DNA of 64,000 nucleotides, taken from the NCBI GenBank assembly GCA_963674595.2, contig CAXXFV010000016.1:32001-96000 (forward strand), in the 5' to 3' direction. A program made the position numbers and the translations under genes. Within the stretch, counting starts at the first letter, position 1. Each line of letters starts with the position of its first letter. Shown here one piece after another: positions 1,585-33,106 of this stretch. The notes under the pieces are model-generated. The model saw nothing but the letters and a program-made list of their open reading frames with translations, was not told where the DNA came from and searched no databases. This stretch comes from a bacterium (GTDB lineage: Bacteria; Zhuqueibacterota; Zhuqueibacteria; Residuimicrobiales; Krinioviventaceae).

Positions 1585-1607
1585 AAAAAAGCCGGAAAAT
1601 CCGGCTT
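1583..1607 (-). terminator. Rho-independent terminator of the cytochrome operon, between convergent genes
   Basis: AAGCCGG-AAAAT-CCGGCTT inverted repeat preceded on + by an A8 tract (U-tract on -). Confidence 0.75.
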
Positions 1608-2307
1608 AAAAAATATTCCAAATATACGATTTTGCAGGGTCTGTATGACATTCGGTCGTACAGGTCGCATTATCGTGGTCCCAACTTAAAGCTGCATTAA
1701 CTTCAGCATTTGGTGATGAATCGATGTGACCTGCATCTGAAAAATATGTTGGTGTTGAATGGCAGGTTTCACAGTTGATTGTGGTAAGGGCTAAATGGAG
1801 CTGATGTGCCCCAACACCGATGGCGGTCGTTAGAATATTGTTGTTCGTGTCTTCCGGGGGTGCTATGCTTGTGCTGCTGCCGTGACATGTATTACAACTT
1901 TCGGGGCCGCCTGATTTATGGCAGGTATAACAGGATGTAATCGTTCCGGCGCCTTTATAATCTGTTCCATGACAACTCTGACAGTTTTCCATGGACCAGT
2001 TGTGTTGGCGAATATAGTTGCCATGAAAATCCTCGGATGTTTGAACAATCCATTCTTCAACATGGGGAAATGTTACATGGCATGTTATACAGGCGGTTTT
2101 TGCTTCACCTCCGGAAAGGTCTGCTCCGTGACAGCTTGTACAGGAAGAGTAACCCACCGTGGCCACTTTTTTCCCATGAAAATTTTCTGAGGTTTGCTGC
2201 ATCCAGCTTTCCGGGTGTGTTTTAGAGGGAAGCGGATTTTTGTCGTCTGAACATGCAAAAAACAATGTTGAAATAAAGATGCTTGTTATGAACAAATATT
2301 TAAACAT
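1606..2307 (-). CDS. Multiheme c-type cytochrome lipoprotein (6 CxxCH + 1 CxxxCH)
   Basis: Probable start ATG 2307 (MFKYLFITSIFISTLFFA-C lipobox). Motifs CTSCH, CITCH, CQSCH, CYTCH, CNTCH, CETCH, CTTECH. Confidence 0.88.
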   Translation of the reverse strand: MFKYLFITSIFISTLFFACSDDKNPLPSKTHPESWMQQTSENFHGKKVATVGYSSCTSCHGADLSGGEAKTACITCHVTFPHVEEWIVQTSEDFHGNYIRQHNWSMENCQSCHGTDYKGAGTITSCYTCHKSGGPESCNTCHGSSTSIAPPEDTNNNILTTAIGVGAHQLHLALTTINCETCHSTPTYFSDAGHIDSSPNAEVNAALSWDHDNATCTTECHTDPAKSYIWNIF

Positions 2308-2344
2308 GGTAAACGCCTTTCGGAGTTGACGCCATTTGTTTTGT

Positions 2345-3229
2345 TTAATTAGCTTGGTGACACTGAACGCAAACAAGATCGCCAAAAGATTCGTTATGAC
2401 AACTCATACATTGATCAAGGTCCTGATGGGCCGCTCTTTTATGACCTCCACCCGTGGTTTTATTGGACCAACCGGCGCTGGCATGTGTGCGAGGCATAAC
2501 CATTTGTTCCTGGTGGCAGGTTACACAAAAGGCCAATTCTTCGTGACATGTATAACAATTTTCCTTGTTTCCTTTTGCCTGAATTGCGTGATTGTTGACA
2601 AAGTTAAGAGGATGAACCTTATGGTCCAGATTGTCACCCGTGTGACAGGTCAGGCATTGATTTTCCGTATGACAAACTTTACATTCGTCTTCTGAAGTTT
2701 GGCTGATAATGCCATGGGCCGTTTGCCAGGCAAGATTATGGTCTTTGGGTTTCAGGTTTTCATCTTTTGAATGGCAAGATAGGCAATAATCCACCTGGTC
2801 CATATCATTATGACAGGTAACACAGGTTGCCATTGGCGGTAAATGTTTATCAAAAATATTATTGCTTTGTTCAATATCCTGGTGACATTGTGAACAGGGG
2901 ATCTCTTTTTCGATATGAGCAGCATGTGGGAAAAAGGCAATATAATCGGTTATTCGCGGATAAACAACGGCATTATCCGGGTTTTTATGACATAAACTGC
3001 ATTCGGCATCCTGATCGTGACAGGCATAGCATGTTTCCATTTCCGGCAACAGATTGTCCGTTGGTTTCAGACTGCTGTCTGCTCCCGCATGACAGTCGGA
3101 ACAGGCCGCTCCTACAGATTCAGCATGAAGTTTGTGCGAAAAGATCAGTTCAACCTGTTGCTGCGCATACATTGTTGAAACACCTGTTAAAAGGAACAGT
3201 AGAAATATAGTTAGAGTTTTTAAATTCAT
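2345..3229 (-). CDS. Periplasmic dodecaheme c-type cytochrome (c3/c7-like repeats)
   Basis: Signal peptide (MYA-QQ), 12 CxxCH motifs, and FSH..H / F.H..H distal-His motifs. Confidence 0.9.
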   Translation of the reverse strand: MNLKTLTIFLLFLLTGVSTMYAQQQVELIFSHKLHAESVGAACSDCHAGADSSLKPTDNLLPEMETCYACHDQDAECSLCHKNPDNAVVYPRITDYIAFFPHAAHIEKEIPCSQCHQDIEQSNNIFDKHLPPMATCVTCHNDMDQVDYCLSCHSKDENLKPKDHNLAWQTAHGIISQTSEDECKVCHTENQCLTCHTGDNLDHKVHPLNFVNNHAIQAKGNKENCYTCHEELAFCVTCHQEQMVMPRTHASAGWSNKTTGGGHKRAAHQDLDQCMSCHNESFGDLVCVQCHQAN

Positions 3230-3246: not shown

Positions 3247-4431
3247 TTACCAGCTAAAGGAAATATGATTCAGAAAACGGGAATCATTATCTTTAAAACG
3301 GTTACTCAACCATTGATATTCAATATCTATCATAAAATGTCGATTCGGGTGCCAGGACAGACGTGCTGCATTTGCCAGCAGGTTGTCGTACTCGTAAATT
3401 TCTTCTGTGCGGTATTTTGAATAATCCAGATTTATTGAGGCAATCAGATCATTCATAACTTCCTGAGAATAATCGAGTACAACGCCTGTTTGGTCTCCGG
3501 CATATCCTGATTCATACAGAAAACCGACACTTGCGTTCATGTGACTGAATGTAAAATATAGTTTGTTGGCATTACCGTCATCAAACTGTACATATTTATA
3601 ATCTGCATTAATAAAAAAGTCTGAAATAAATTCCCAATCGGCGCCGGTGTGATATTGGGTATAAGCTTCCGGGGAAAAAATGGAGTAAAATGAATCGGCA
3701 TATATTTGGGGAAATTGGCTTTTGAAACCGGCACGGAGGGCAATTTGGGGATTTACCGTATACCGGGCATAAGCCAACATTCTGTGTAATTGTTCGTTTT
3801 CAATATCATAATGCGCCTGAATGCGAACCTGAGTACGAGGTAAAAGAGAGTTACTCAGATTTATACCTGCCAGGTGCCAGAAAATTTCATTTTTATTTGC
3901 TTTTTGCAGGTAAAAGGGTTGAATTGTGGTAGAATAAATATTTTTTAAATTTATTAAACCACCAATAATTTGACTGTCGTCGGTCTCATAAACTTTAAAA
4001 GAACGCTGGAAATGGGTTTCAACGCCGCCATATATATGAACGGAGAGGTTTTTAAGTATCCTGCTTTTTAAATAGATACCATCAAGACCGCCTAATACGG
4101 TCCCGGGGTGGCGGAATTGTCTTCCGATGGTTAAATCAATTCTGTTTAATAAATTTTTGACCTCAAGGTTTAGAACATAGGCTTTAAAACGCTCTTCACT
4201 GTTCAGCGACTCCTGAGTATCGGTCAGCCCTCGAAGAGAAGAATTGATTATAATTCGATTGTTCCACGTGCGCAAACTCATTCGGGCGTATTGATAAATC
4301 CGAGTGGTTGATTCGATGTCTTTATAACTGTATATCGAATTTTTTACACTGCCGTGAAAAATTAAATTTGTTGCTTTAACGTTGGTAACAACAAAAAGTG
4401 AAACGAGCAATAAAACAAGAATCTTTTTCAT
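3247..4431 (-). CDS. Outer-membrane beta-barrel, putative porin of a porin-cytochrome complex
   Basis: Signal peptide, alternating aromatic/hydrophobic strands, GRQ motif, C-terminal HISFSW; lies directly upstream of two multiheme cytochromes. Confidence 0.75.
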   Translation of the reverse strand: MKKILVLLLVSLFVVTNVKATNLIFHGSVKNSIYSYKDIESTTRIYQYARMSLRTWNNRIIINSSLRGLTDTQESLNSEERFKAYVLNLEVKNLLNRIDLTIGRQFRHPGTVLGGLDGIYLKSRILKNLSVHIYGGVETHFQRSFKVYETDDSQIIGGLINLKNIYSTTIQPFYLQKANKNEIFWHLAGINLSNSLLPRTQVRIQAHYDIENEQLHRMLAYARYTVNPQIALRAGFKSQFPQIYADSFYSIFSPEAYTQYHTGADWEFISDFFINADYKYVQFDDGNANKLYFTFSHMNASVGFLYESGYAGDQTGVVLDYSQEVMNDLIASINLDYSKYRTEEIYEYDNLLANAARLSWHPNRHFMIDIEYQWLSNRFKDNDSRFLNHISFSW

Positions 4432-4509: not shown

Positions 4510-5514
4510 TTATTTTATAATAATATCCGAATAATCTGCTGCAGGAGGTGTATATTTTGATTTTGTCAAGCTGTTATAGGCAAATCCGTTAACACCATAA
4601 AGTAAACTTTTTGCGTCATAGCCGAGTATTTGCAGATAAGCAGCTATCTGTGCCGATGTTTGACCTGTATAGCAATAGATAACAATGGTTTTATCCGTTG
4701 GTAAATATTTCAGCATGGCATCTTTTTTTAGAGATGTTTTGGGTTCATAACAAAAAGCACCTTCAATATGTCCGGGATTCAGGTACTCGGCTTTTGGCCA
4801 ATAGTTGATAATAAAATAATTGCCGGGATTTGCGAAAACAGTGGCAGCACTGATATTTCCCCATCCGCTGGTTGCCAGAATATCTTTTACCCGTTCTTTA
4901 ATTATGTCTTCGGCTGACGTTTTGCCTGTTGACAAGGTCGGATAAGTTTGTTCAGTGGTCGGTGTTAAATCTGTAGTTTTTAACTGGGAAGCAAATTCAT
5001 CACCGGCAATTTGGTTTATCCACTTGTCTGTGCCGTTAATGCTGTTATCTGCAACAACAGAGCACATGGCAAATAACAGGTTTTGTGCATCATAACCCAG
5101 CATGTTTAAAACGGCTGTTGCCCAGCTTGCTGTTTGCCCGGTATAACAGATATTCAAAATGGTTTTGGTTTTGGGAATTGTACCATCGTTAATTTTGGTA
5201 ACAAGATCGCCGATTGCCATATTAACAGCACCGATAATATGTCCGGATGTATAATCAGCGGCTGATCTGTAATCAATGATATATGGATCATTGCTAGTGT
5301 CACCATCGGTTAAGAGGGTTTTAACATCTGCAATTGAAATGTTTACAGATTTTCCGCTTGTGGAAGTATAACTGCTAAAATATTGATTGCCGACGGATTC
5401 AACGAGATTAAACTCAACTATTTGTTCTTGTGTTTCAGCCGGGTTGTCATCGTCGCTGCAAGCTGTAATAATAATAAAAAGTCCGAGGAAGAGAATTAGA
5501 AACCGTTTTAACAT
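4510..5514 (-). CDS. Tandem rhodanese-domain (sulfurtransferase) lipoprotein
   Basis: Lipobox IITA-C; IIDYR..DY..GHI.GA and EY...GHIEGA motifs; two active-site loops ICYTGQTA and YCYTGQTS. Confidence 0.88.
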   Translation of the reverse strand: MLKRFLILFLGLFIIITACSDDDNPAETQEQIVEFNLVESVGNQYFSSYTSTSGKSVNISIADVKTLLTDGDTSNDPYIIDYRSAADYTSGHIIGAVNMAIGDLVTKINDGTIPKTKTILNICYTGQTASWATAVLNMLGYDAQNLLFAMCSVVADNSINGTDKWINQIAGDEFASQLKTTDLTPTTEQTYPTLSTGKTSAEDIIKERVKDILATSGWGNISAATVFANPGNYFIINYWPKAEYLNPGHIEGAFCYEPKTSLKKDAMLKYLPTDKTIVIYCYTGQTSAQIAAYLQILGYDAKSLLYGVNGFAYNSLTKSKYTPPAADYSDIIIK

Positions 5515-5554: not shown

Positions 5555-6847
5555 TTAGTTTTTCGTTAATACGATTTGTTTATTAGCGTCGATTTCATTG
5601 GGATCAAGATCGTCGCTAGTTAAATAATAATCTGAATTATGACATTTGGAACCACATGATCCGGCATCATTGCGTGTGTCTGTTTGCGGCGTCCATCGTT
5701 GAATATTATGTGGCGTAGCATATTTCCATGTTGTTTCGGAAGAATAGTTGGGTAAATCTGCGATACCCCAACTGGCATAGGTGTCGCGTGAAATCGGTAT
5801 ATGACGAACGGTTACGATTTTATAGTTACGATCTGCTGACCGGATCGGATTTCGGGCGATTTTAAAATCCATATAAGAACTTCCGGTAATACCTTGCCCG
5901 CCGGTGTGGCAGGAGTTACAATTTTTGTATGATTGTGAATGGCAAACCTGACAGGAAAGTTCGCCCCAATGCATATTATGATAATTGTTTGCGTTTTCTT
6001 TGTCCTGATGACAGTCTTCACACCGGACCATGTCCTGATCTTCGTATCTGTGTTCCGCCGCTACAGAGCTGCTGTGCATTGCATCTTCTGAATGGCAAAA
6101 TGTGCAGCGTTTAACATTCGGAATCCAATGGACATCAGGGTTAATGCCTGCATTTTCGCCAAAATATTCTGCTCCGACACGGCTGCCGTGACATGCAGTA
6201 CAGTTATTCCGCATATCAGGTTCTTTTTGAAAAGTGTGTCCGTTTAAAAAACCACCATCCACGGAAACCGGACGTGAAACATGACATTGTCCGCAGGAGG
6301 CATGGCACTTTCCACATTCCGCATCAAATTTGTCAACAAGGTCCGGATTTGTTGAAATATCATATCCCAGTCGTTTTTCAATTCTTTTGTAATACCCTTT
6401 GACGTTGTAATGTAAACTGTTTTGGTGTTTGGTCGTAACATCCGCGTGGCAACCTGCACAAAATTGTTCTGACGACGAACTTGGATAGGCGACAAGTCCT
6501 TTATGTGCAACATCTTTAGTTTCTGCTTTTGAATCACCTAAATGACAGGCTGTACAGCCCATTTCCCCATGTGTTGTGCTGAAAAAAGTTTGGTTTACAA
6601 GAACCATTTGCCAGGCCTCTAACTGAGACACGGATCCGCCTCAGCCTTCGCCTGCATCGCCCTCAACATCCGGGAGTGGATCTGCAACCTCTTTTAATAA
6701 AGCAGAATTTGTATGACAACCTATACAACCGTCACTACTTGCCATTTGAACCGTTTTTTGTTCAGCGGGGTATTTTTTTGTACATTGAATAGCCGCCAAG
6801 CAAATCAGCAAAGCAGTGAAAAGATAAGCTAAAAAACGATTTTGCAC
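5555..6847 (-). CDS. Putative selenocysteine-containing multiheme cytochrome c lipoprotein (430 aa; 10 CxxCH + 1 CxxxCH; Sec at codon 69)
   Basis: ORFs 6641-6847 and 5555-6631 share a frame and are separated by one TGA (6643-6641) plus GGC GGA TCC, giving GEG-U-GGS-V. Only the upstream part has a signal/lipobox and RBS (GGAG, GTG start). A SECIS-like hairpin follows the TGA. Confidence 0.8.
6611..6643 (-). promoter_or_regulatory. In-frame UGA plus bacterial SECIS-like stem-loop
   Basis: UGA GGCGGAU CCG U GUCUC AGUUA GAGGC C UGG: 5-bp upper stem, 5-nt loop with G at position 2 followed by U, U/C mismatch, 3-bp lower stem. The loop starts 16 nt after the UGA. Confidence 0.7.
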
Positions 6848-6884: not shown

Positions 6885-7352
6885 TTAATTTAGTGCCATG
6901 TTTCGGCTTTTAGTGTTTTCCTGAATGTATGTTTTGATTAATTGAATGATTGTTTGTGTAACAATATTGTCCGGTTCTATCTGTAAGGCATTTTCAAAAT
7001 ATATCAGAGATTTTTTAATGTCACAAAACAACCATAGCATTCCCATCATGTTGTGAAAATCCAGAGAATTTTTATTTTCATTGGGTCTTTTTTCTGCATT
7101 ATATACGAGCTCCGCACAAGGGCAGTCATCGTCAACAGCATTGGTGTTGATGATAAAAGAAATATCTTCTTTAATAAGAGGAACAAACAGTTCCAGAGCT
7201 TGGTCGATTTGAAATGTTTGTGTATAACTGACAACAAGCTTGCGACGAACTTGTTTATTTTTGGGATCATGTTGCAGTATTTCTTCAAGCTCTTTAACGG
7301 CGCCGGTATAGTTACGCGATAAAAAGTATTGGTTTCCAAGCATTTCAGACAT
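6885..7352 (-). CDS. Tetratricopeptide repeat protein with DDDCPC motif
   Basis: TPR-like helices (LGNQYF...GAVKELEEILQHDPKN; MGMLW...FENALQIEPDN); no signal peptide. Confidence 0.75.
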   Translation of the reverse strand: MSEMLGNQYFLSRNYTGAVKELEEILQHDPKNKQVRRKLVVSYTQTFQIDQALELFVPLIKEDISFIINTNAVDDDCPCAELVYNAEKRPNENKNSLDFHNMMGMLWLFCDIKKSLIYFENALQIEPDNIVTQTIIQLIKTYIQENTKSRNMALN

Positions 7353-7526: not shown

Positions 7527-8846
7527 TTAAACAAGACCGTGTGTTTTCATACGACGCCAAAGCGTTGTTCTGCCGATTCCCAGTTCAGCGGCTGCTTTGC
7601 CTCGGTTCCAGTGGTGCTTTTCCAGCGTTTTGGCAATTTCATTATCCTGCTTTTTGATGTTCCTGGGTGTTACAGGCTTGATATTATCAAAACTAATACG
7701 AATATGAGCGGGGAGTTTTGTTTTTTCTATAACATCGTTATTTTTTGTTCTGGCAAAGGCATATTCGATGGTATTTTCCAATTCGCGAACATTTCCCGGC
7801 CAGTTGTAACGTAATAATATATCCATTGAATCGTCATCAATTTCATGAATATTCTTGTTATAAAGAAGTGAAAATTTATGGATAAAATGTTTGACCAAAT
7901 AGGGTATATCATCCAACCGTTCTCGCAATGGAGGAACATGAATGGGTATTACATTAAGTCGATAATAAAGGTCTTGGCGGAATTGACCGGATTCAAGCGC
8001 TTGTTCCAGGTTTTTATTGGTTGCGGCTATCACCCGAACATCGACATTGCGCGTCGTCGATTCTCCGATGCGCTCAAATGTACCTTCCTGCAAAATTCGA
8101 AGTAACTGCAACTGGGTTTGCTGCGGCATTTCTGCAACTTCATCCAGAAAAATTGTTCCTTTGTCTGCCAGCTCAAAGCGACCGACCCTGTCTTTAATTG
8201 ACCCTGTAAACGCTCCTTTTACATGGCCGAAAAGTTCACTGGCGAGTAACTGGTCCGGGAAAATAGAACAGTTTACTTTGATATACTTTTCATTTTTGCG
8301 ATAGGATGTCGTCTGAATAGCATTGGCAATCATCTCTTTTCCTGTCCCGGATTCACCCTGAATCAGAACAGCCGCGTCTGCATCGGCAATTTCATCAATC
8401 AATTCAAAAATTTCTATCATGGATTTATGATAACCGACAATACCATGATATTGTGTCTCTTTAATTAATTTCTTTTTGATGACCTCTACTTCCGAAATAT
8501 CCCGGAAAGAGATGATTCCGCCATAGGGTTCGTTATCACTATTATACAGAACCGACGAATTCATCTTGACATATATTATTTCGCCTTTTTCATTAACAAG
8601 CTTTGATTCGATGTCATATTTAGTTTGTCCCGATTCCAATACATGGGCTATTGGGCATTTGCCGGAACAAAGTCCGGTTTTACAAACATATTTACATATT
8701 TTACCAATAACGTTTTCGCGGTTTATCCCCAGTATGTCTTCTGCAGCACGGTTGATAAATGTAATTTTAAAATTTTTATCAACTGTAAAAACGCCTTCTC
8801 CGATTGAATCCAAAATGTCTCTTGTTTGTGGTTGTCGAATTGGCAA
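7527..8846 (-). CDS. PAS-domain sigma54-dependent transcriptional activator (PAS-AAA+-Fis HTH)
   Basis: N-terminal PAS (FINRAAEDILG), Walker A GESGTGKE, GAFTGS, FLDEV, WPGNVRELEN and HTH AAAELGIGRTTLWRR. Confidence 0.93.
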   Translation of the reverse strand: MPIRQPQTRDILDSIGEGVFTVDKNFKITFINRAAEDILGINRENVIGKICKYVCKTGLCSGKCPIAHVLESGQTKYDIESKLVNEKGEIIYVKMNSSVLYNSDNEPYGGIISFRDISEVEVIKKKLIKETQYHGIVGYHKSMIEIFELIDEIADADAAVLIQGESGTGKEMIANAIQTTSYRKNEKYIKVNCSIFPDQLLASELFGHVKGAFTGSIKDRVGRFELADKGTIFLDEVAEMPQQTQLQLLRILQEGTFERIGESTTRNVDVRVIAATNKNLEQALESGQFRQDLYYRLNVIPIHVPPLRERLDDIPYLVKHFIHKFSLLYNKNIHEIDDDSMDILLRYNWPGNVRELENTIEYAFARTKNNDVIEKTKLPAHIRISFDNIKPVTPRNIKKQDNEIAKTLEKHHWNRGKAAAELGIGRTTLWRRMKTHGLV

Positions 8847-30864: not shown

Positions 30865-31960
30865 ATGTATGATGAAATTAGAGATACATTAAAAGAATAT
30901 AATCAACGAATCGATTCACTAAGGGGGTTCCTTTGACATTGAAACCAAAGAAAATGAAATAGCCCAGCTTGAACAACAAACCCAGCAACCGGGATTCTGG
31001 GACAATAATGAAAAAGCACAAAATACCATGCGTGAAATCAGTTCCAGGAAAGATTGGGTGGACACCTGGGCTGGTATGAAAAAACAGTGTGATGATCTGT
31101 TTGAACTGCTTACGTTGGCAGAAGAAGAAAATGATGATGATACTGCAAAAGAGATTGAGGTAGATTTAAAAGGGCTTGAAAAAGACATTCTGGACCTCGA
31201 ATTTCGTAAAATGTTGGGAAATCCTGAAGATTCAAAAAGCGCTATTTTAACCATTCATCCCGGTGCCGGTGGTACAGAGTCTCAGGACTGGGCGCAGATG
31301 CTGATGCGTATGTATATTCGCTGGATTGAGCGGAAAAAATTCAAATATGATATTTTAGATATACAATCCGGAGATGAAGCCGGTATTAAAGGTGTGTCTA
31401 TTGAAGTAACCGGTAATTACGCCTATGGCTATTTACAGGCTGAGGCCGGTGTTCACCGTTTGGTGCGGATTTCTCCGTTCGATTTTAACAAACGCCGCCA
31501 CACATCATTTGCTTCTGTGTTTGTTTATCCGGAAATTGACGATGCTATTGACGTGGATGTTGATGAAAAAGACCTTCGTGTTGATACCTATCGGGCCAGC
31601 GGTGCCGGTGGTCAGCATGTTAACAAAACTTCATCAGCGGTAAGGATTACTCATCTTCCTTCGGGTATTGTTGTTCAGTGTCAGAATGAGCGTTCCCAGC
31701 ATCGGAACAGAGAATCGGCAATGAAAATTTTATTTTCACGCTTGTACCAGTTAAAGCTGGAAGAAGAGCGGTCTAAAATGGAACATTTGGAAAGCTCTAA
31801 AAGAGAAATCGGCTGGGGAAGTCAGATTCGGTCTTATGTTTTTCATCCCTATAATATGGTTAAAGACCATCGTACCAATCATGAAACCAGTAATACAACG
31901 GCGGTTATGGATGGTGATCTGGATGAATTTATACAAACCTATTTGATGCAGTATAAATAG
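30865..31960 (+). CDS. prfB: Peptide chain release factor 2 (programmed +1 frameshift)
   Basis: ATG 30865, 23 codons to AGGGGG-TTC-CTT-TGA-C (30922-30937); the +1 frame continues into the RF2 body with SPF and GGQ motifs. Confidence 0.96.
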
Positions 31961-31996: not shown

Positions 31997-33106
31997 TTGA
32001 GGCCCACTGTTGCTGAAATAGATCTGACAGCCATTGCTAACAATATAAAGGCGATTTGTAGTAAAGTTTCTCCGGCAAAAGTTATGGCAGTTGTAAAAGC
32101 GGATGCCTATGGGCATGGTGCGGTCCAGGTGGCCAAAGTGGCCCTGAAGAATGGCGCTTCTTCATTGGGAGTTTCATGTGTTGAAGAGGGCATTGAACTC
32201 CGAAAAGGCGGGATTACAGAACCTATCCTTATTTTTAGCGGCGTCAGTTTAAATCACGCAGAAATGTATTTACAGAATGATCTTGAAGCCACCCTTTATA
32301 CAAAACAGGATTTACAAAATTTAAAAAAGACGATTCAACGTATTGGTAAAAGGGCAACTGTTCATATAAATATCGATACCGGAATGGGACGGGTCGGTAT
32401 TAACTGGTCTGAAGCTGTTCCTTTTATCGAACAACTGATGTCCGAGGAAAATATAGAAATTAAAGGTTTATACTCTCATTTTGCCACATCAGACCATATG
32501 GATAAAAGTTATGCTTACCTGCAGTTGTCCCGGTTTAAAAATGTTGTTTCAGCGCTGGAAGAAAAAAATATTCACATCCCCTGTAAACACATTGCAAACA
32601 GCGGAGCGGTGCTTGATATCCCTGAAGCCGATTTTGATATGGTGCGACCGGGTATATTGATTTATGGATATTTCCCTTCATTAACGACTTTTGAAAGTAT
32701 TAAAATTGAACCGGCAATGACTTTTAAAACACAGGTGTTATATATTAAAAAACTCGGACGCGGAGAAAGCGTTAGTTATGGTCGTATTTTTATTTCAGAT
32801 AAAGATACGGAAATTGCAACCATGCCGGTTGGTTATGCGGACGGTTATAATAGACTGTTGTCGAACAAGGGAGAGGTTTTAATTAATGGTAAAAAATTTC
32901 CTGTTGTCGGCAGGGTTTGTATGGATTTGATCATGGTTGATCTCGGATTGGACCATGATGTTAAAATAGGGGACGACGTTATATTATTTGGTAAACAGAA
33001 CACGGAAGAGATAACCGTTCGTTCAATTTGTGAAAAATGCAATACGATCCCTTATGAGGTGACCTGTTGGGTATCGGGACGTGTTCCGCGAATTTATAAA
33101 AATTAG
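31997..33106 (+). CDS. alr: Alanine racemase
   Basis: AVVKADAYGHG, DTGMGR, SYG, GYADG and GRVCMD motifs. Confidence 0.96.
   Translation: MRPTVAEIDLTAIANNIKAICSKVSPAKVMAVVKADAYGHGAVQVAKVALKNGASSLGVSCVEEGIELRKGGITEPILIFSGVSLNHAEMYLQNDLEATLYTKQDLQNLKKTIQRIGKRATVHINIDTGMGRVGINWSEAVPFIEQLMSEENIEIKGLYSHFATSDHMDKSYAYLQLSRFKNVVSALEEKNIHIPCKHIANSGAVLDIPEADFDMVRPGILIYGYFPSLTTFESIKIEPAMTFKTQVLYIKKLGRGESVSYGRIFISDKDTEIATMPVGYADGYNRLLSNKGEVLINGKKFPVVGRVCMDLIMVDLGLDHDVKIGDDVILFGKQNTEEITVRSICEKCNTIPYEVTCWVSGRVPRIYKN

Follow-up and report, generated by a model that had tools for sequence, protein, structure and literature searches.

Few multiheme cytochromes that contain selenocysteine (Sec) are known. The accessible part of a 2026 review of the prokaryotic selenoproteome names three cytochrome-related Sec families: ExtKL (NF040886), GSU2204 (NF041027) and octahemes of the OTR family (TIGR04315) (PMC13188914). 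MccSep of Geobacter, identified as the long-sought sulfur reductase of that genus only in 2026, is described as reducing polysulfide and selenite in a manner that depends on Sec and heme; its gene lies next to those of a rhodanese lipoprotein and a porin, and its family is defined by five hemes (PMC13510729). The ExtHIJKL cluster likewise includes a rhodanese lipoprotein and a porin, ExtH and ExtI (PMC6148476). Here a further candidate is described. It lies in a window of 64,000 nucleotides (nt), the whole stretch of DNA that was analysed (positions 32,001 to 96,000 of contig CAXXFV010000016.1, assembly GCA_963674595.2), to which all coordinates refer. Comparison with homologs indicates that 6847..5555 on the minus strand is very probably a single gene, in which UGA codon 69 would be decoded as Sec by SelB and tRNA-Sec guided by a hairpin. 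The product is predicted to be an exported 11-heme lipoprotein.

The read-through protein matches none of the NF040886, NF041027 and TIGR04315 models. A full-text search of the literature found no description of this family (supplements in PDF format lay outside that search). The available part of a genomics paper on KSB1 reports selABD only (PMC9012183). Four locus tags of the present family are absent from a supplementary file of PMC13510729, and the one KSB1 entry in that supplement, whose site is ..G-U-P.., is a true MccSep. The elements of the gene are the following.

6847..5555, minus strand: candidate selenoprotein gene in one frame (1293 nt, 431 codons, 430 residues, stop codon at 5557-5555)
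6847..6641, minus strand: upstream open reading frame (ORF) of 68 residues, GTG start (ORF listing)
6631..5555, minus strand: downstream ORF of 358 residues, GTG start, in the same frame as the upstream ORF (ORF listing)
6782..6847, minus strand: predicted signal peptide and lipobox, residues 1-22, LAAIQ-C22 (read-through translation)
6713..6727, minus strand: heme motif 1, C41-I-G-C-H45, before the UGA (read-through translation)
6641..6643, minus strand: UGA codon 69, the probable Sec codon in GEG-U-GG (alignment of 110 loci)
6613..6631, minus strand: hairpin resembling a Sec insertion sequence (SECIS) (inspection and covariation)
5558..6574, minus strand: core with heme motifs 2-11, residues ~92-430, OTR-like fold (translation, structure match and profile)

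The sole interruption of the 6847..5555 frame is the TGA at 6643-6641, codon 69. A preliminary description of the locus had placed the two ORFs in one frame with a single TGA between them, and the 431-codon frame bears this out. It had also credited the upstream ORF with a ribosome binding site, a lipobox and one CxxCH motif, and the downstream ORF with nine CxxCH motifs and one CxxxCH motif and no signal peptide. The translation agrees on every count. A GGAG sits 6 nt 5' of the GTG start at 6847. The Cys aligned with the lipobox C22 occurs in 87 of 98 full-length relatives, and a crude lipobox pattern matches 55 of the 98, a set in which the upstream cut at 68 residues shortens some N-termini. 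C41, C44 and H45 of heme motif 1 are invariant (98/98 sequences), and the acidic, Gly-rich stretch that follows runs into GEG-U69-GG. Beyond the UGA, the CxxCH motifs of the core begin at residues 98, 130, 178, 185, 216, 248, 276, 299 and 310, and the CxxxCH motif (C398GSKCH) occupies residues 398-403. In total the read-through protein has 11 heme motifs, ten CxxCH and one CxxxCH. Gene callers record only the 358-residue piece for this locus (P0002), the split that the preliminary description had expected of standard annotation.

Is this locus alone in being split? A search of a protein collection with the read-through protein gave 2325 matching clusters, the best 120 of which were inspected. 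In 117 of these 120 the match covers just the last 73-83% of the query and begins right after the TGA position. Because these relatives lack the N-terminal 70 residues, they appear to have been split by annotation as well. The remaining three are full length, and one of them, P0003, carries GEG-C-GG.

The site itself was read from nucleotide sequences. A six-frame search detected the gene in 43 of 167 genomes of the phylum. The full-length match holds exactly one TGA in 37 of the 46 rows; of the nine that have none, three do not cover residue 69. Related stretches in a collection of species-representative genomes numbered at least 583, and 80 of them entered the analysis. Their labelled lineages are KSB1, Calditrichota, Gemmatimonadota, Eisenbacteria, Chloroflexota (Dehalococcoidia, Anaerolineae), Ignavibacteriota/Bacteroidota, Planctomycetota, Thermodesulfobacteriota, Cloacimonadota and others. 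With 30 loci from the phylum search this gives 110 loci (the two sets overlap in some records), in which the site was read from frames anchored by tblastn with TGA read through. Codon 69 is TGA in 94 of the 110, Cys in 13 and something else in three.

Phylum search, 30 loci: U 27, C 2, other 1
Genome collection, 80 loci: U 67, C 11, other 2

The context of the TGA among these loci is G-U-G-G. TAA or TAG does not occur at the site in any of the 110, nor are the two halves in different frames in any of them. G70, G71, heme motif 1 and all 11 heme motifs are kept in 96-98 of 98 distinct full-length sequences. Column entropy is 3-periodic directly past the UGA, and the flanks are conserved on both sides. 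On this comparative evidence, the gene very likely belongs to a large, multi-phylum family in which heme 1 and an OTR-like multiheme core flank an invariant G-U-G-G site.

In a maximum-likelihood tree of 98 sequences, from which the three loci with neither residue were excluded, the Cys forms require two changes. One is in a long-branched clade of nine, labelled Bacteroidota, Ignavibacteriota or Chlorobiota. The other is in a pair nested deep among Sec forms of the source organism's own family. Loss of the Sec machinery was considered as the cause of the non-Sec forms and is not supported: selA scores above the cut-off in three of the four tested genomes that have Cys or other forms (G087, G071 and G002), and was not found in the fourth, G086, which is 86% complete.

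The second line of evidence is the hairpin that follows the UGA. Its core stem pairs 6629-6625 with 6619-6615 (GUCUC/GAGGC) around the loop AGUUA (6624-6620), as the preliminary description had drawn it. The spacer from the UGA to the stem is 11 nt (6640-6630), the loop begins 16 nt after the UGA, and it contains GU. The 11-nt spacing and the GU in the loop agree with the description of the minimal E. coli SECIS. The significance of this hairpin rests on comparison, since in the single sequence it is indistinguishable from chance. The preliminary description had offered it as a match to the SECIS pattern, a claim that gains covariation across relatives and loses any standing from the single sequence.

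Covariation was measured over 86 distinct Sec-type stretches of 60 nt, with the hairpin extended to eight pairs. In these 86 sequences 81.8% of cells are paired, and double-sided changes occur in seven of the eight pairs, 35 cells in all. Covariation scores 0.217, whereas shuffles give 0.103 +/- 0.009 and none of 500 reaches the observed value; this control overstates significance because the sequences are related and the hairpin lies within conserved coding sequence. When the 3' partners are slid by one to three columns the score falls to 0.033-0.120. The most informative pair, 24-38, is G-C in 50 sequences, A-U in 12, C-G in four, U-A in two, G-U in four and unpaired in 14; it couples a silent third codon position with the second position of an Ala, Val or Gly codon. 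All five core pairs form in 63 of 86 Sec forms as opposed to 1 of 11 Cys forms, and local folding energy averages -10.5 kcal/mol for the former against -2.4 for the latter, although this comparison is near to a single event because the Cys forms without a hairpin are mostly one divergent clade of nine.

The third line is the genome, an assembly of 6.6 Mb in 37 contigs that is 97.6% complete. The preliminary description had pointed to selA, selB, selC and selD, and all are present. tRNA-Sec scores 65.9 bits (cut-off 47) and has the anticodon UCA according to ARAGORN, selA scores 574 bits and selB 354 bits. selD scores 389 bits and has one in-frame TGA of its own, in the context VKCAG-U-AAKL (L018, G000:C4:13190-14113). 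A hairpin with a 14-nt spacer follows that UGA as well (GCCAA / AUGAA / UUGGC), which is a loose parallel only. Genome-wide recoding of TGA had been excluded from the outset, and this holds: TGA terminates 5 of the 33 long (at least 250 codons) stop-to-stop frames of the window, and the window contains prfB, at about 30917-31948 on the plus strand. The prfB match (L134) has one in-frame TAA, which may be the programmed frameshift region or a match edge.

What kind of protein does the complete frame encode? Pfam finds generic multiheme domains only. Within E <= 10, NCBIfam gives no family, the best model being ExtS with 14.8 bits against a cut-off of 100. A phmmer search of the protein (P0001) against PDB sequences gave no meaningful match. 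An AlphaFold2 model built on 58 sequences has a mean predicted local distance difference test (pLDDT) of 86.8 and a predicted template modelling score of 0.80; it is weak at the post-lipobox linker and at residues 61-70. In a structural search 1sp3_A, which is OTR, is best with Z 9.3 and a root-mean-square deviation of 4.4 over 257 aligned residues (model residues 90-430), the next match having Z 4.5. Foldseek against the PDB also places 1sp3 first, yet weakly (E 0.075, TM 0.33). A profile of the family matches 1sp3_A at E 5.4e-7. As judged from the model and the profile, the core is a distant relative of OTR with extra hemes and an N-terminal module of one heme plus Sec.

The conserved His residues outside the heme motifs number ten (93, 115, 146, 204, 240, 258, 290, 293, 349 and 380) for 11 hemes. 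This means that one heme may have a non-His or open sixth position. No conserved Cys lies outside the heme motifs and the lipobox in 98 sequences. The genome also holds a true OTR gene elsewhere, which scores 579.9 bits with TIGR04315 and has no internal stop (L139, G000:C23:1685-2932).

The genes around the selenoprotein gene, all on the minus strand, stand in the order PAS/sigma-54 activator, tetratricopeptide repeat (TPR) protein, selenoprotein gene, rhodanese, barrel, 12-heme cytochrome and lipoprotein cytochrome. Neighbors were counted by tblastn of the window proteins against the 110 loci, many of which are short or cut by contig ends, and the counts are therefore lower bounds.

7527..8846, minus strand: PAS sigma-54-dependent transcriptional activator (PF00158 with E 7.7e-68, PAS and HTH_8); 44/110 loci
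6885..7352, minus strand: small TPR protein directly upstream of the selenoprotein gene (Pfam TPR families); 42/110 loci
4510..5514, minus strand: lipoprotein with two rhodanese domains (PF00581 in two stretches, E 4.8e-21); 101/110 loci
3247..4431, minus strand: plug-less outer-membrane beta-barrel with 22 predicted strands and a signal peptide (AlphaFold2, pLDDT 85.6); 36/110 loci
2345..3229, minus strand: exported cytochrome c with 12 CxxCH, 294 residues and a signal peptide; 22/110 loci
1606..2385, minus strand: lipoprotein cytochrome c with 6 CxxCH and 1 CxxxCH, lipobox FFAC-SDDK, start probably the internal Met27; 16/110 loci

The difference between 101 of 110 loci on the one hand and 36, 22 and 16 on the other indicates that the cytochrome-rhodanese pair is the core of the system, and that the barrel and the extra cytochromes are accessory. 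The rhodanese is mostly directly adjacent; in Dehalococcoidia-labelled loci it is upstream of the cytochrome. All 40 aligned neighbors, out of 78 complete ones found, keep its active-site residues C123 and C281. The barrel has no Pfam or NCBIfam family. It has the size of a TonB-receptor barrel without the plug, and its structure matches, with Z from 20.4 to 16.6, include TonB-dependent receptor barrels (Z 20.4) and MtrB, 6r2q_B (Z 16.6). The 12-heme and 7-heme cytochromes recur with the barrel, a trio that resembles a porin-cytochrome conduit.

The three lipoproteins differ just after the lipid-anchor Cys. Acidic residues follow it in the rhodanese (C-SDDDN, 5458-5514), in the 7-heme lipoprotein (C-SDDKN, 2250-2307) and in most rhodanese neighbors, and the selenoprotein is basic there (C-TKKY, 6770-6790). 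In Bacteroidota-like bacteria, acidic residues at this place are a mark of surface export. By analogy, the rhodanese would lie outside and the selenoprotein would remain in the periplasm. Four truncated homologs of the cytochrome (P0063, P0066, P0072 and P0080) are named 'thiosulfate/3-mercaptopyruvate sulfurtransferase' by one source without a recorded rhodanese domain, a label that has probably spilled over from the neighboring gene. Some 40 nt upstream of the GTG, and adjoining the sigma-54 activator gene, lies TGGCAC-N8-AAGC (6898-6883, minus strand), whose spacer is presumably one base longer than that of the -24/-12 sigma-54 consensus. A sigma-54 promoter is not established, as a loose -24/-12 pattern occurs upstream in just 10 of 97 distinct loci.

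From the rhodanese neighbor in 101 of 110 loci, the invariance of its catalytic Cys in 40 of 40 sequences, the OTR-like fold, the 22-strand barrel and the precedent of MccSep, the protein is proposed to be the terminal reductase of a module for sulfur (or selenium) respiration. Drawn from gene context and by analogy, this proposal has about an even chance of being right. After export by its signal peptide, the product would receive a lipid anchor at Cys22 and 11 c-type hemes. The rhodanese lipoprotein would bind sulfane sulfur (polysulfide or a persulfide derived from S0) and present it to the selenolate of Sec69, which would sit on a flexible linker, Gly-rich and invariant, between the heme-1 module and the core. 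A Se-S intermediate would then be reduced by electrons arriving via the heme chain, with release of sulfide. In the source diderm, the plug-less barrel, the 12-heme exported cytochrome and the 7-heme lipoprotein cytochrome might link the module across the outer membrane to the exterior. The explanation favored overall, a Sec-containing 11-heme lipoprotein cytochrome with a role as a sulfur or selenium reductase, is considered likely.

What would Sec69 do at the heme? With ten non-motif His for 11 hemes, no extra conserved Cys and an invariant G-U-G-G on a flexible linker, it is conceivable, if rather doubtful, that Sec69 is the sixth ligand of one heme, giving a His/Sec-ligated heme c. Alternatively, it might be a swinging selenolate arm that takes the persulfide sulfur from the rhodanese and is reduced at that heme.

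Several observations weigh against this interpretation of the locus, in addition to the two reservations attached above to the shuffle and Cys-form controls. Folding of the single sequence, over a 71-nt stretch, gives a z of -0.31, with 72 of 200 shuffles folding equally well, and the minimum free energy structure of that stretch is a different hairpin that contains the UGA. RNAalifold on 27 sequences also prefers another hairpin, one that contains the GA of the UGA. That alternative was tried as the conserved element and rejected, being without covariation on the 86 sequences (470-498 of 500 shuffles score as high). At E <= 10, Rfam finds just a chance snoRNA match of 9.1 bits between 6500 and 6720, and no SECIS family. 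At three loci the residue is neither Sec nor Cys: L042 (Leu), L060 and L106, with the contexts DEG-L-GG, GEG-EIR-GG and AR-GG-DG, respectively. From these it follows that the residue is dispensable for the fold. The genome of L042 also holds a second paralog that does bear the TGA (G003:C167). The Sec loop, residues 61-70, is of low confidence in the model (pLDDT 56). As to function, the substrate is a guess from gene context. In addition, the protein mass per heme is about 4 kDa, and by a rule of thumb given in PMC7096707, as far as its accessible text goes, this resembles an electron-transfer cytochrome and not a typical catalytic one.

The last points bear on the alternative that survives best, namely that the protein is a real selenoprotein with another job. 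It could be a tetrathionate or thiosulfate oxidoreductase like OTR or TsdA, a selenite or tellurite reductase, or the entry to an extracellular metal conduit, where Sec would be a heme ligand or redox tuner and not a nucleophile that attacks sulfur. OTR is after all the closest solved structure, MccSep is reported to reduce selenite too (PMC13510729), and the ExtI porin is reported to be required for selenite and tellurite reduction (PMC6148476). The barrel and the two further multiheme cytochromes in the operon are also what porin-cytochrome conduits have, the low mass per heme suits electron transfer, and there are just ten conserved distal His for 11 hemes. However, it is the rhodanese, not the barrel or the cytochromes, that stays constant across lineages labelled diderm and monoderm, and its constancy points to sulfane-sulfur chemistry rather than metals. 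Moreover, the genome already has its true OTR at another locus. Another job is possible but less likely than reduction of sulfur or selenium.

A very improbable alternative is that there are two genes: a 68-residue monoheme lipoprotein that ends at the UGA and a leaderless 358-residue protein that starts at GTG 6631, whose ribosome binding site would be the GAGG in UGAGGCGG. Gene callers do give exactly this 358-residue product, the GAGG lies 7 nt before GTG 6631, and an in-frame ATG, GTG or TTG occurs within 12 codons past the UGA in 79 of the 86 Sec-type sequences. However, the other seven have no such start codon, and the GAGG is merely part of Gly codons. c-type hemes are attached after export, and the downstream piece, with its ten heme motifs, has no signal peptide, which disfavors a separate protein. 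Thirteen homologs are also single ORFs with Cys at the site. Finally, only three codons separate the TGA from GTG 6631 (GGC GGA TCC), and the codons between UGA and start (GGN GGN NNN) are kept as Gly-Gly among relatives while the third position varies.

More improbable still is that the UGA is read by a route other than Sec, for example by a near-cognate tRNA or through local recoding as Trp, Cys or Gly. The inserted residue is not distinguishable by computation, which leaves room for this view. Nevertheless, the genome has the full Sec machinery, the hairpin covaries at the spacing expected for a bacterial SECIS, Cys is the only common alternative at the site, and TGA acts as an ordinary stop in a window that also contains prfB. 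As for a broken gene or an error of sequencing or assembly, a recent nonsense mutation of a Cys or Trp codon would need one base change (TGC, TGT or TGG to TGA), but with the same TGA in 94 of 110 loci of many phyla, strong conservation downstream and 86 nucleotide contexts that are all distinct, this barely credible idea is for practical purposes refuted by the comparative data.

The reading of the locus as a Sec-containing multiheme cytochrome has consequences beyond this genome. Gene callers cut the gene at the UGA in 117 of the 120 best matches. As a result, database entries lack its signal peptide, first heme and Sec, and the family is overlooked when the metabolism of many uncultured lineages is reconstructed. 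The fixed pairing with a rhodanese yields a concrete, testable hypothesis for sulfur (or selenium) respiration in the groups that carry it, and the protein would be a natural system for studying selenium beside heme. If the doubtful proposal for Sec69 and its heme were true, then selenium-heme chalcogen chemistry would have been invented a second time, independently, and in a form more widespread than MccSep. Sulfur respiration in KSB1, Calditrichota, Chloroflexota, Eisenbacteria and others would also gain a marker gene.

How, then, does the family compare with known systems? In Wolinella succinogenes the periplasmic rhodanese-like carrier Sud hands polysulfide sulfur to a terminal reductase, which is a molybdoenzyme. 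The logic of sulfur handover is the same as that proposed here, but the reductase is not a heme selenoprotein and no sequence relation is known. A second likeness is to MtrCAB of Shewanella and the Ext clusters of Geobacter, in which a barrel is encoded with exported multiheme and lipoprotein cytochromes; MtrB is itself among the matches of the present barrel. However, this 22-strand barrel is closer to TonB-receptor barrels, and here both barrel and cytochromes are accessory.

OTR of Shewanella oneidensis (PDB 1sp3, TIGR04315), a periplasmic reductase of a sulfur compound, is the best structural match to residues 90-430. Its active-site heme is Lys-ligated. It has eight hemes in comparison with the 11 of the present protein, and it is without the N-terminal heme-1 module or the Sec linker. 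The TIGR04315 model (cut-off 375 bits) gives no hit with P0001 and finds the other gene in the genome.

MccSep/ExtKL (GSU2937-2936, NF040886) shares the most features. According to the accessible text of PMC13510729, it is a multiheme c-type cytochrome with one Sec, the UGA splits the annotated gene, and a SECIS-like hairpin follows right after. It clusters with a rhodanese-family lipoprotein and an outer-membrane barrel, Cys-type homologs exist, and it is linked to sulfur and selenium reduction (PMC13510729, PMC6148476). The preliminary description had cited the linkage to rhodanese and porin for the Geobacter precedent only; it stands there, and the same linkage is found here too (rhodanese 4510-5514, barrel 3247-4431). 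That description had also called the architecture different, and rightly. MccSep has five hemes whereas the present protein has 11. The Sec of MccSep is near the C-terminus, in a ..G-U-P.. context and beside a heme-ligating Cys, whereas here it is residue 69 of 430, in an N-terminal GEG-U-GG. MccSep is soluble in the periplasm, whereas this protein has a lipobox. The NF040886 model (cut-off 250 bits) gives no hit with P0001 at E <= 10, and its best score in the genome, 64.6 bits, is at other loci. The present family has more than twice the hemes of MccSep and is widespread (at least 583 stretches, 2325 clusters). As far as sequence comparison goes, it is not a relative of MccSep but a distant relative of OTR.

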